This document shows positions 4,663-60,279 of a stretch of DNA of 64,000 nucleotides, piece after piece. The position numbers and the translations under genes were made by a program. Numbering within the stretch: position 1 is the stretch's first letter; each line of letters opens with the position of its first letter. The stretch is from Eledone cirrhosa. Its lineage: Eukaryota. The notes beneath the pieces are model-generated. The model was not told where the DNA came from. It saw nothing but the letters and a program-made list of their open reading frames with translations, and ran no database searches. The stretch is from NCBI GenBank assembly GCA_964016885.1, contig OZ024750.1, positions 24,800,001 through 24,864,000 on the forward strand, read 5' to 3'.

Positions 4663-4708
4663 AACCGTCTATGCATTTCAGGCTTAACTGGCCTTCGTCA
4701 GAACAGTC
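4663..4708 (-). ncRNA. Minimal type I hammerhead ribozyme motif
   Basis: Minus strand: gactgtt CTGACGA aggc-cagttaa-gcct GAA ATGCAT A^ gacggtt. 7-bp stem I with G-U pairs, 4-bp stem II, palindromic stem III AUGCAU, AUA cleavage triplet. Confidence 0.8.
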
Positions 4709-5014
4709 CCTCCCACCGCTTACGACTGCTGGACTAGAAGACAGGCGATAATAAATACTTTTCTTGTCTGTGTAAATGAGGTGATTAATCTCATTTGCAT
4801 ATGAAGCTGCATAAGTTGGCTCAACTTATAATAGAAAAGAAATATATATATATATTAGTAAAAAGGAAAAGAAAATGCTGACAAATTTTTCCCAGTGAAA
4901 AATAGTTTAATTAGTAATAAGTATTAGTTAGTATTCAGTTTTAGTTTTAAGTTTTTACCGATTGCGCATTTCTTATGCTTTTCAAAAATAATTTTGAGAT
5001 AGAGTGCTAGTGAT

Positions 5015-5580
5015 TTTTGCTCTAATCTATATACACACACACTCACATTTTTGCTCTAATCTATATACACACACACTCACATTTTTACTCTAATCTATAT
5101 ACACACACACTCACATTTTTGCTCTAATCTATATACACACACACTCACATTTTTGCTCTAATCTATATACACACACACTCACATTTTTGCTCTTATCTAT
5201 ATACACACACACTCTTGCTCTAATCTATATACACACACACTCACATTTTTGCTCTAATCTATATACACACACACTCACATTTTTGCTCTTATCTATATAC
5301 ACACACACTCACACTTTTGCTCTAATCTATATACACACACACTCTTGCTCTAATCTATATACACACACACTCACATTTTTGGTCTAATCTATATACACAC
5401 ACACTCACACTTTTGCTCTAATCTATATACACACACATCACATTTTTGCTCTAATCTATATACACACACACTCACATTTTTGCTCTAATCTATATACACA
5501 CACACTCACATTTTTGCTCTAATCTATATACACACACACTCACACTTTTGCTCTAATCTATATACACACACACTCACATA
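5015..5580. repeat. 34-bp minisatellite
   Basis: Unit tttttgctctaatctatatacacacacactcaca. Confidence 0.95.
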
Positions 5581-6384
5581 CACATATATTGAGGGATAAT
5601 TTGAAAATCTGAAAAGCCCCAATAACAGAAACAGCAATGTCAATGTTAATTTTCAAAAGTATATAAGAGAGAAAGAGAGAGGGAGAGACGGGCAGACAGA
5701 CAAAGAGAGAGCAAGAGAGAGACAGAGAGACAGGCGGACAAGGAGAGATGGACAGACAGACAAAAAGAGAGACAGGGAGACAGAAAGACAGATATACAGA
5801 CAGACTTATGTAGGCCTCTCCCAGCTAGATTCAGAATGTCAGAATTGCTACTGTCAATGCTGTCACAATGAAAGGTAAGACATCCAGCTGTAGAGATTAT
5901 ACCAAAATGGAACATATGAGCAAGACTTTGTCATTTGACCTGTCTAGTCTTAAAACATAACAATCTATCCAACCCATGCCTATGATGTAAACAGCTCTAA
6001 AACTGATTATGATGATAATAACATATATGTATATGTGTGTGTATATATATATATATATATATATATATATATATATATATATATATATATAAACGTTTGT
6101 ATATGTATAATAAAACCAAAACAATGCAAGCATGGACATAGAATAAAGAATGCAAATGCAAAAGATATTGTTGACAATTAGTCTTTTACCTTAGATTTAT
6201 TTAAATGTCCTTAATTTTCGAGATAATATTTCTTCTTCGTAGGGAAGTAAAGCGGTTAAACCAGTGTTCTATATATATATATATATATATATATATATAT
6301 ATATATATAGAGAGAGAGAGAGAGAGAGAGAGAGAGAGAGAGAGAGAGAGAGAGAGAGAGAGAGAGAGAGAGAGAGAGAGAGAG

Positions 6385-6635
6385 AGAAATATTAAAACAA
6401 TGAAATTAAACAAAAAACAGATAATTCATAGTAAAACTCATTATGAGTTTTTACTATGAATTAACAGTTTTTTGTTTAATTTCATTGTTTTAATATTTCT
6501 ATTTTTGACTCTGTATCCAATGAATTATATCGTTGAAAATTTTATATTTTAAACTTTGCTTCACGACATCTACATACGGATTACATTGAGTTCTTCATAT
6601 GGTTTAGACTCTACCATTGATTGGTAGATTTATCT
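6385..6635 (+). mobile_element. Dispersed repeat with fold-back 5' junction (family B, PLE-like)
   Basis: Hairpin of about 55 bp per arm (agaaatattaaaacaatgaaattaaacaaaaaac...gttttttgtttaatttcattgttttaatatttct), followed by the tail gactctgtat...ggattacattgagttcttcata...ctacc...ttggtagatttatct that is shared with 57400-57660. Confidence 0.55.
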
Positions 6636-7656
6636 GTGTGTGTGTGTATATATATATATATATATATATATATGTGTGTGAGTATATATTAGTTACAAAA
6701 TTATTGCTTCAACTACATATAGATTTCATACTCAATCACACTCACACACACAGAGAATTACACACACACATATATATATATATATATATATATATATATA
6801 TATATATATATATATACACACACACACATGTAATAGAAATACAAAAATAAATATAAATAAAAAATAAGAAGGAAATAAAATAAAGAAAGAAAGAAAAAAT
6901 AATGTTAAGAAATGAAATGAAATTCCAATTCTTTCTGGATAAAACATATTTTCCAATTGGTTTATGTGAATGAAATTGTCTGCTTCCATATCGATCTACA
7001 TGCTTCCAGAGAACTGTATTTTCTTGACTATTTAACTTCATTTTAGTTCTTTATTTTTTTCTGTGTGGTGGGGGAGAGGTAGGATAGGCAAGGGGCAGGG
7101 GGCTGGCTTAATTTTCCCTACCCTTTTTTTTTTTTTTTAAATATTTTTTCATGATTTTTAAAATTCATTTACAAGTTTGTTATTTTTTATATTTCTCTTT
7201 TTCTTTACTCTCTTAAGATTTTTGGCATTGAATTCTTTTTACCATGGAAATTCTGGCATCAAATCTCTTGTTGTTGATGTTGTTGTTGGTAATGATGGTA
7301 GTAAAGGTGGTGTTACTGGTGGTGGTGTCAGTATTATTATAGTAAAGGTGGTGTTACTGGTGCCAATAGTTATGGTATGAAACATATATACATATACACA
7401 TATATATACTGTCAGTTATATATATATATATATATATGTGTGTATATATATATATGCGTATATATATATGTATATATATGTATATATATATATATGTATA
7501 TATATATGTGTATATATTATATGTAAATATATATATATATATATATATACATATATATACATATACATATATATATATATACATACATATATATATGTGT
7601 ATATATATATATGTGTGTATATATATATGTATATATATGTATATATATATACATAT

Positions 7657-56937: not shown

Positions 56938-57340
56938 GGTGTCTGCCAACTCGTTTTCGAGTACGGCCACTACTTTATATCTATGTAGGAGAACCCCTAC
57001 CGATGCGCTGAACGAGTGTGATTTTTTAGTCCAGGCAGCGACTTGAAAACTCTGGCACAAACACTACACTTGTGACAATTATTGACACATAGTGTACATG
57101 GTACCATGTGACGACAAGTGCAGAGAGATCTCCAGATATAAAGCAATGCCTGTGCCGTGAAGCTTTTATAGTGAGCAAAGGCACTGCACAAAGCCAGTCC
57201 CACTCTCTTAACCAAGATGATATTTACCAAAAAGAAGAACAAGTCAACATCATTGGATACGATCAGGGTTGCAGGTGTTATATCAGAGTTTTCCTTCTCC
57301 TAGAATTCTGCCTTGACAAAGGCTAAGGGGTCATCTCTCT
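56938..57340 (-). mobile_element. Second copy of the internally deleted RTE/BovB-like element
   Basis: Near-identical to 19160-19560 and encodes CSVCARVFKSLPGLKNHTRSAHR. Confidence 0.6.
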
Positions 57341-57399
57341 TATATACATATATATAAACATATATACATATATATATATATACATATATACATATACAT

Positions 57400-57660
57400 A
57401 TAAATTATTTAAAAAATAATGAATAAACAAAGAAACAGTTCCTTATATTAAACAAAAAAAGTTCATTTTTTTGTTTAATATAAGGAACTGTTTCTTTGTT
57501 TATTCATTATTTTTTTAATAATTTATCTTGACTCTGTATTCCGTTTATCTTTCACCGAAAGTGATTTTTGAATGCATCTCTTCTTTTCATGATATCCGGA
57601 TTACATTGAGTTCTTCATACGGATTGGACACTACCGTAAACTTTTGGTAGATTTATCTAC
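57400..57660 (+). mobile_element. Family B fold-back element
   Basis: Near-perfect hairpin of about 58 bp per arm (57401-57525), followed by the tail shared with 6505-6635. Confidence 0.6.
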
Positions 57661-59048
57661 ATATATATACATATATATATACATATATACATATATATAT
57701 ACATATATATATATATATATATATATATATATATATACATATATATATATATACATATATATATATATATATATATATACATATATATATATATACATAT
57801 ATATATATATATACATATATATATATATATATATACATATATATATATATATACATATATATACATATATATATATATATATATATATACATATATATAC
57901 ATATATATATATATATATACATATATATACATATATATATATATATATATATATATACATATATATACATATATATATATATATATATACATATATATAT
58001 ACATATATATATATATATATATATACATATATATACATATATATATATATATATATATATATATATATACATATATATACATATATATACATATATATAT
58101 ATATATACATATATATATATACATATATATACATATATATATATATATATATATACATATATATACATATATATATATATATATATATACATATATATAC
58201 ATATATATATATATATATATATACATATATATACATATATATATATATATATATACATATATATACATATATATATATATATATATACATATATATATAT
58301 ATATATATATATATATATATATATATACACATATATATATATATACATATATATATATATATATACATATATATACATATATATATATATATATATATAC
58401 ATATATATATATATATATATATACATATATATACATATATATACATATATATATATATATATACATATATATACATATATATACATATATATATATATAT
58501 ATATATATATATATATATACATATATATACATATATATATATATATATATATACATATATATACATATATATATATATATATATATATATATATATATAT
58601 ATACATATATATATATATATACATATATATACATATATATATATATACACATATATATACATATATATATATATACATATATATATATATATATATATAT
58701 ACATATATATACATATATATATATATATATACATATATATACATATATATATATACATATATATATATATATATACATATATATACATATATATATATAT
58801 ATACATATATATACATATATATATATATACATATATATATATATACATATATATACATATATATATATATATATACATATATATACATATATATATATAT
58901 ATATATATATATATATACATATATATACATATATATATATATATGTATACATATATATACATATATATATATATATATATATATATATATATATATATAT
59001 ATACATATATATATACATATATATATATATATACATATATATATATAT
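57660..59048. repeat. About 1.4-kb (TA)n/(TACA) microsatellite
   Basis: Continuous TA repeat interrupted by C. Similar blocks at 7420-8370, 18660-19160, 32250-33220 and 37640-38070. Confidence 0.97.
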
Positions 59049-60209
59049 TCGTATGTAAATTCTTTAATTATAATTAGAGCAACATAAAAAACGTGAATTA
59101 AAAAAACTTTTTTGTCAGGCTTTGTTACAGCTGTGTCATTGCCCCGGTAAATTCCGCCCCCCAGATAAATATTTATATACATATATATATATATATATAT
59201 ATATATATATATATATATATATATATATATATATGCGTGTACATGCATATATATATGTGCATGTGTTTGTATAATTCGAGTGTATGTAGATAAACATTAA
59301 GAGAGAGTGTGTGTGTGTCTGTATATAATGTGTGTAAGTAAAAAGAATGAGAGAGAAAGTTTATGAAAGTGACAGCTAAACAGATTTTTAAAGTTTTACA
59401 ACTCTAAACAAAACAACTGTGATAAGACGGCTAGCAATATCCCATTACATTGGTGACACATTTACAAACGGTTCTTTTCCCCCCAACTCCGTCATAGCGA
59501 CGACAATTCGCCAACAAAATAAGTTTTAAACCCATCTTAGTACATATAAACATAGTCTAATAGAAACACATACAAATATATATAATAATATATATATATA
59601 TATATATGTACACACACTTCGACATGGTTTAATATAAATACATATAACACTATAGATATACATATATATATATATATGTACGCTCAGACATTTCGACATA
59701 TTCTAGCAGAAATACAAACACACACAGATATATACATATATAACAGAAACACGTGCGTGTAAATACAGCCAGACACACACACATATAACAGTATATATAC
59801 GTATACATATAACAATATATATATATATGTTTATATACACATTGGCTCACATACACACTGAAGCATGACATACAATAACGGTACTTGTCATTGAATTATA
59901 AAAATTTTGTTGTTTATCATCTGAATAGAAACGGAGCAAAGAAAGTTTTTATATTTTTTCTTCTGACGTAAGTAAAAGATTTTATTTTTCACTTTCAAAA
60001 TGAAACTGTTTTGTTATGGTGTTGTGTGTTCTTGTGATACTAGAAACATACATGCATATATATACACAGACATATATATATATACATACGATTTCACAGA
60101 TACACATATATATATATATATATATATATATGTGTGTGTGTGTGTGTCTGTGTGTAGACTTAGCACTTTCCTGTAAACAAGTTCTATTATGCTTCATATC
60201 ATCTTACCT

Positions 60210-60279
60210 TATTTTATCTGATGAGGAGACACTTTTTGTCCCAGGATGATTTTGTATTCGAAATACACATAATAAAATA
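60210..60279 (+). ncRNA. Type I hammerhead ribozyme motif
   Basis: tattttat CTGATGA ggagaca...tgtattc GAA AT acac AT A^ ataaaata. Perfect 8-bp stem I, stem II closed by G-C, 2-bp stem III, AUA triplet. Confidence 0.78.

Follow-up and report, generated by a model that had tools for sequence, protein, structure and literature searches.

We analysed a 64-kb window of contig OZ024750.1 of Eledone cirrhosa, by which we mean the whole stretch of DNA considered here. The window is AT-rich and full of (TA)n runs and pieces of short interspersed elements (SINEs), and it contains a set of small type I hammerhead ribozyme motifs on both strands, together with a broken endonuclease of a Penelope-like element (PLE), a young palindromic repeat and two exons of a quiver-like gene. 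The motifs, each designated by a coordinate and its strand, are listed in Table 1 with the related features. Ten of them show a full core, triplet and stem I, corresponding to about one motif per 6.4 kb, and all ten combine the CUGANGA, GAAA and NUH elements with stems I and II arranged as in type I. Seven had been reported in a first-pass annotation of this DNA, and the core, the GAAA, the triplet and a pairing stem I were found in every one of these; the other three are 18591+, 29340- and 55999+. The same annotation had listed further motifs as mutated or partial, correctly so for 18025- and 49478-, whose cores are mutated, and for 29351+, whose helix III is broken. By contrast, 18591+ and 55999+ turned out to be full-core motifs, and 19959-, although it does have a 5' core, is not separable from chance.

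Table 1. Hammerhead motifs, PLE remnant and palindromic repeat in the window
Feature	Position	Strand	Characteristics
4663 motif	4663..4708	-	full core, helix III AUGCAU (dimer only), AUA triplet
Family A, decayed	18025..18116	-	core CUGGUGA and AAAA; AATAAA downstream
Family C	18583..18658	+	full core, stem II weak; terminates in (TA)n 29 nt past triplet
19959 fragment	19959..19972	-	5' core only, cut by (TA)n; indistinguishable from chance
Family A, full core, weak stems	24122..24268 (motif 24184-24268)	-	helix III ACAUAUGU
Partner of 24184-	24299..24378	+	inverted, 5'-truncated: begins in stem II, ends at (TA)n
Family C head-to-head pair	29265..29418	both	29340- full core, poor stem II; 29351+ helix III broken
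34221 motif	34221..34306	+	full core, GUA, Hydra-type helix III (4 bp around 1 nt)
Hydra-clade PLE GIY-YIG endonuclease, broken C-terminal half	34680..34870	+	pieces in three frames
Decayed hammerhead-like stretch	34947..35010	+	core-like 5' strand, stem II, GAAAC; fold read by eye, weak
Family A, best-folding full-core copy	44096..44191	-	stem I 7 bp, stem II -21.7 kcal/mol
Family A, mutated core CAGAUGA	49478..49568	-	helix III ACGCGCGU, AATAAA downstream
Family B head-to-head pair	55564..55662	both	55614-55662 (+) full core, GUC triplet
Family C head-to-head pair	55947..56061	both	55999+ full core; minus arm begins in stem II
56708 motif	56708..56773	-	full core, helix III AUAUAUAU, AUA triplet
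60210 motif	60210..60279	+	full core, A/U stem I of 8 bp, stem II weak, helix III of 2 bp and non-palindromic
Family E	7660-7841, 34395-34594, 43260-43435, 44847-45044	both	young palindromic repeat set in (TA)n
Family E, further copies	48508-48591, 55423-55560, 56097-56212		as in the preceding row

The first-pass annotation had proposed to compare the number of motifs with shuffled sequence and to search the window with the Rfam hammerhead models. With a strict type I descriptor the window gave seven matches, with respect to means of 0.07, 0.17 and 0.14 (maxima of 1, 2 and 3) in 300 dinucleotide shuffles at each of three block sizes (900 in all). These matches correspond to five of the seven motifs of the annotation, to 29340- and to the weak 27473+. 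When one mismatch was permitted beside the core, seven matches were again obtained (five of the seven, 55999+ and 29340-), vs. means of 0.15 and 0.12 and a maximum of 1 in two controls of 120 shuffles each (240). Motif 44096- was recovered only with an energy-scored stem II, a result without shuffle control, and 24184- only at the loosest descriptor setting. Complete motifs are 40 to 100 times more frequent than in the local shuffles, whereas the bare 7-mer core is not enriched (24 in the window vs. 18-22 expected). The Rfam search gave no match for the window at the gathering threshold and no hammerhead in two sub-regions searched at E values up to 10; of 442 weak matches, the first 150 consisted of microsatellite hairpins and similar hits and included no hammerhead. 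Variants with a covariant core (U3-A8, G3-C8 or A3-U8) were sought in the window and none was found.

The stems of the motifs had been described as mostly sharing little sequence, a statement that does not hold for eight motifs falling into two families of four. Family A comprises 18025-, 24184-, 44096- and 49478-, with a mean column identity of 66% and a stem II of 58-63 nt. Its stems are paired in 83% of 120 cells, with respect to 26-36% in slid controls, and double changes occur at 6 of 31 pairs; in a test on four sequences, with the structure taken from one of them, the covariation score was reached by 2 of 500 shuffles. Two of the four members have broken cores. Motif 24184- lies antisense within an intron of the quiver-like gene and has an inverted partner, absent from the first-pass list, that is 81% identical to it over 101 nt. 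Motif 44096- has an AATAAA downstream and a (TA)n run 56 nt downstream.

Family C consists of 18591+, 29340-, 29351+ and 55999+, plus the minus arm at 55947-55990. In this family, stem II comprises 3 bp and helix III 4 bp with an 8-nt loop, and the triplet of 18591+ and 55999+ is GUA; the pair at 55947..56061 is flanked on both sides by AT-dinucleotide runs. The stub of 18591+ may reach 216 nt further upstream (18375-18658), to a (TA)n run, and this possible extension would open with a CGH-like peptide piece recalling the end of the Hydra endonuclease; both observations are weak. In family B, the minus-strand arm (55564-55614) has the core, stem II and GAAA and is then cut, and the repeat continues to about 55769 and beyond an inserted SINE piece. 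This piece, at 55770-55888, is skipped by the read joints of other copies.

Reads of four public DNA runs (X1, X4, X6 and X23, the last one being restriction-site-associated DNA sequencing, RAD-seq) were placed on 55556-56095 at 80% likeness. Family B was abundant in X1, X4 and X23, and family C in these three and in X6. This result clearly indicates that families B and C are high-copy repeats common to more than one organism label. In each of the four runs, family C reached a depth of between 1/11 and 1/28 of the SINE peak, bearing in mind that read depths in public runs are not copy numbers, and the window holds 5 family C arms vs. 25 SINE cores. Since the ratio is lower in the runs than in the window, the window may exceed the average richness. 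In the reads of family B, the letter prevailing at 55656 restores the sole broken pair beside the core (13428 of 13668 reads in X23), and in stem I the majority letter at 55659, together with the X23 loose-end consensus before 55618, gives a U-A pair where the window has G-C. Among the 40 read differences listed, out of 197, none falls at a core position, and in family C the in-motif changes among them are confined to loop II. The best-matching public DNA run contained 36% of 52 query words. No RNA run was among those listed in this search, a result that has no bearing on expression. The family C pattern gave no match in metagenomes and none in viral contigs. A looser pattern matched 16 metagenome and 4 viral loci; most of these lay within long open frames or were surrounded by them, none had a convincing stem I, and they were rejected as chance. 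One metagenome contig (L003:292-325, plus strand) has a core, a perfect 6-bp stem II and an AUGCAU palindrome, with no stem I.

These data bear on another explanation, namely that the motifs match by chance or arise as by-products of palindromic repeats, the DNA being AT-rich. Some observations go in this direction, i.e., the lack of enrichment of the 7-mer core alone, the absence of Rfam hammerhead matches, and the fact that 27473+, 19959- and possibly 60210+, whose stem I is made of A and U only, could be chance. Nevertheless, the excess of complete motifs over the local shuffles, the covarying stems of family A and the recurrence of families B and C in public runs largely refute a chance origin of the set, which we regard as hardly credible.

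The remaining full-core motifs show additional features. Motif 4663- has a stem I prolonged into an imperfect longer helix (4641-4659 with 4716-4734) and lies within a self-paired 128-nt region (z -2.57). Next to 34221+, a (TA)n run starts 23 nt past the triplet, and 56708- is followed by AATAAA directly after stem I. The 51-nt stretch just 5' of 34221+ (34167-34217) recurs inverted, with 92% identity and without hammerhead, at 28860-28910. Helix III had been described as usually self-complementary. Among the seven motifs of the annotation this is strictly so in three (4663-, 24184- and 56708-) and nearly so in another three, but 60210+ is non-palindromic; accordingly, the computed energy of the helix III self-duplex is between -3.2 and -8.8 kcal/mol for six of the seven and +2.6 for 60210+. 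The first position of stem II, checked for an extra base before G10.1-C11.1, is A-U in four of the seven, G-C in one and a mismatch in two. Six of 13 motifs have an AATAAA no more than 16 nt from the triplet, with respect to a background of 2.7%; these belong to three independent families, family A supplying four of the six.

The connection with PLEs that the first-pass annotation had proposed was strengthened by several observations. At four sites, two copies with truncated 5' ends are joined head to head as an inverted pair, an arrangement matching the inverted, 5'-truncated copy that the legend of Figure 2 in PMC8557442 describes as drawn for PLEs. In the Hydra hammerhead table of the same source, helix III has 4 bp enclosing 1-2 nt, stem II often has U-U at its base, and the targets are (TA)n. 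The helix III of both 34221+ and 55614+ agrees with this table, and so do the U-U stem II base and the ACAG/CUGU helix III of family C. Membership of 34221+, family B and family C in the Hydra clade is plausible on these sequence grounds. The AU-rich 3' flanks with AATAAA point the same way, as does the endonuclease remnant. Its end, LNKKSELISACKH at 34829+, scored 56 as compared to a shuffled best of 27.9 ± 3.1 (maximum 38, 200 shuffles), and is the single match in the window for the LN..E...CxH with which the Hydra endonuclease ends (PMC8557442); the other endonuclease pieces, in neighbouring frames, were read by eye. The remnant indicates that such elements litter the region and is not proof of the membership of any given motif. 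Endonuclease-like peptide ends upstream of 18591+, 49478-, 56708- and 60210+ were too short to count.

Taken together, we consider it probable that the motifs of the window are short 3'-terminal stubs of PLEs, at least some of them of the Hydra clade, left by 5'-truncated reverse transcription. An intact PLE elsewhere in the genome would be transcribed, and its reverse transcriptase (RT)/GIY-YIG protein would nick AT-rich or (TA)n DNA and copy uncleaved RNA from near the 3' end; a stub that contains a whole hammerhead would have to derive from an uncleaved template. Copying would often halt within 50-300 nt, so that the insert would consist of the hammerhead and a short AU-rich tail, and a second stub would often be added inverted, head to head. 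Within the RNA of the parent element, helix III, being weak and self-complementary, might allow two motifs to cut as a dimer or with the help of a protein. Most of the copies in the window are predicted to be inert, being single or mutated, or trapped in the long hairpin that an inverted pair forms. With 60-nt flanks, the eight single copies have a predicted cost of 2-15 kcal/mol for the hammerhead fold, 44096- being the best candidate (2.3 kcal/mol), as compared to 24-47 kcal/mol for the five full-length arms that are paired.

A number of results weigh against this origin. No motif in the window is joined to a recognisable PLE reading frame. Of the linked PLE frames that the first-pass annotation had suggested looking for, no RT frame was found upstream of a hammerhead within the window, where most stubs are shorter than the 170-240 nt that separate the end of the frame from the hammerhead in Hydra consensus sequences, and the GIY-YIG remnant is joined to no full-core motif. 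It lies 3' of 34221+, with two (TA)n runs and a family E copy in between, and is therefore likely an insertion of its own. The decayed hammerhead-like stretch, which starts about 90 nt past the remnant, has an unrecognisable helix III, and alignment gave no support to its kinship with 34221+. A Pfam search of 450 of the 745 stop-free frames yielded neither RT nor GIY-YIG and missed the remnant too; two protein searches with the remnant were blank, an Atlas search with it gave matches only below 0.9, and five other Hydra motifs sought in the window gave no convincing match. Furthermore, 4663-, 34221+, 56708- and 60210+ are each single as a motif in the window; the covariation of family C is not above that of shuffles; in the three non-reference rows of family A, G-U pairs barely exceed A-C mismatches (12 vs. 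10), as expected under neutral decay; and (TA)n runs lie within 70 nt of 5 of 13 motifs with respect to a background of 13.8% (p = 0.025), a weak adjacency.

The first-pass annotation had ascribed the motifs to several hammerhead-bearing non-autonomous retroelement families. In this case, some families would be true non-autonomous elements, either solo non-LTR (long terminal repeat) retrozymes or PLE-dependent mini-elements, with their own short masters that are transcribed, cleave themselves and are mobilised by PLE proteins. The very high read depth of family C over a short stretch would fit, although this narrow peak tracks the truncation of the window copy itself; the self-paired region of 4663- resembles retrozyme RNA; the copies of family E share a fixed length and reach 99% likeness; and solo monomers, derived from PLE pseudo-LTRs, are described as common in retrozyme families (10.64898/2026.07.22.740005). 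However, none of the 13 motifs has a direct repeat within 1.2 kb, and none lies inside a tandem array in whole-window scans, so that the retrozyme reading fails as regards tandem structure. Moreover, the stems are not of the canonical 6-bp/4-bp retrozyme type, with the possible exception of 4663-, and the 5' ends vary between copies, which are often inverted. Such families are not needed, because truncated ends of ordinary PLEs give the same picture as described in PMC4209133, and we consider them unlikely.

We also considered that the host might have retained one or more copies to cut RNA in cis, e.g., close to the quiver-like gene. Several motifs are in or near this QVR-family gene, and for both 44096- and 34221+ the hammerhead fold predicted with 10-nt flanks is no more than 1.4 kcal/mol from the optimum; nevertheless, the intronic 24184- lies on the opposite strand to the gene, its fold is poor (14.6 kcal/mol worse than the optimum), and the cost of the fold in the paired copies, given above, is high. 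A role of this kind appears very improbable. As for the gene itself (quiver/Ly6-uPAR), exons were located at about 23441-23587 and at 26129-26353 on the plus strand, the latter being the last exon and 89% identical to a protein from O. bimaculoides; the signal-peptide exon was not found in the window.

A repeat of a different kind, family E, was found at seven places, with copies 82-99% alike. Its arms present GAAA, then a 5-6-bp helix III with a palindromic loop, then GUC, and may be interpreted as the 3' halves of hammerheads. A scan for such half-motifs gave nine matches, all in family E, vs. 0.46 in shuffles. The copies have no CUGANGA strand, their junctions being just 5' of GAAA, and in four of four pairs there is one short and one long 3' end. 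The long end resembles a PLE tail, but is about 84 nt long. All eight inverted pairs in the window join within about 35 nt of the core, which would be explained if the hammerhead were the point at which reverse transcription stalls and folds back. A bolder proposal has the hammerhead fold itself as the site where PLE reverse transcription stalls, octopus genomes carpeted with such motifs at about one per 6 kb, and family E as a still-spreading palindromic element made of two hammerhead 3' halves, which would have lost the CUGANGA strand and could be cut only in trans; as a whole we regard it as speculative and rather unlikely. If true, it would imply a hammerhead density in octopus far above the thousands per genome reported for other animals.

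Further repeats were noted in the window. Two copies, 95% identical, of a 400-nt repeat are present at 19161-19565 and 56938-57339, with a weak match to a C2H2 zinc finger; we take this repeat to be the 3' end of a long interspersed element. Five head-to-tail copies of a SINE-derived unit of about 205 nt occupy 53850-54840. On the minus strand at 42290-43200, degraded peptide pieces, read by eye and with no Pfam match, presumably recall a non-LTR reverse transcriptase.

The motifs described here add several octopus sequence families to a published class. Two unusual shapes among them, a 60-nt stem II and an 8-nt palindromic helix III loop, are missed by Rfam and are relevant to the annotation of cephalopod repeats. 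The result would carry greater weight if the whole genome proved equally dense in motifs, or if the points of truncation and inversion clustered at the ribozyme, since the role of the PLE hammerhead in transposition is presented as still open in PMC8557442 and PMC11167929. A literature search, in which coverage of subscription journals was thin, found no study devoted to octopus hammerheads. Penelope elements are reported to be abundant in octopus (PMC8967140), and Hydra-1_Obim of Octopus bimaculoides carries a hammerhead (PMC8557442 supplement), from which the window motifs differ in sequence when compared by eye. No octopus entry is present in two supplement files of PMC4209133, and none of four window strings occurs in the Craig 2021 supplement (PMC8557442). 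Thus, the first-pass suggestion of uncatalogued families stands in so far as the window sequences themselves may be uncatalogued, but the kind is already described, octopus included.

Non-LTR retrozymes are described as tandem units of 150-450 nt with circular RNA (PMC7229834; 10.64898/2026.07.22.740005). The window motifs share with them the type I hammerhead, the lack of coding capacity and a probable derivation from PLE pseudo-LTRs; unlike retrozymes, they form no tandem unit in the window. In Hydra-clade PLEs the hammerhead lies within about 100 nt of the 3' end (PMC8557442). The window differs from this clade in the 8-nt helix III loop of family C and in having no full element or RT. There is a close correspondence with the minimal PLE hammerheads of metazoans described in PMC4209133, which number thousands per genome, are heterogeneous, mostly single and sometimes on opposite strands, and cut poorly alone and slightly as dimers. 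The window shows the same type I topology with a weak palindromic helix III, the same U-rich 5' and AU-rich 3' flanks (similar AU-rich flanks appear in the published alignment), and the same combination of several unrelated families, mostly single motifs and some opposite-strand pairs. It departs from that description in the helix III, which measures 6-16 nt from A15.1 to U16.1 instead of the 4 nt of the minimal consensus; in the 58-63-nt stem II of family A; and in the base of stem II, where a symmetric pair or a mismatch frequently replaces the bulge before G10.1-C11.1. The Hydra table of PMC8557442 also departs from G10.1-C11.1 with a single extra base. The set behaves like the PLE hammerheads already known and very probably falls within that class. 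A model for the origin of the stubs is offered by the Poseidon element PAc of Anolis (PMC11167929), whose reading frame begins inside the hammerhead (no such frame was seen in the window). Its hammerhead needs protein and its uncleaved RNA is used for insertion, with a nick in AT-rich DNA and an internal RT start at two sites that makes the tail optional.

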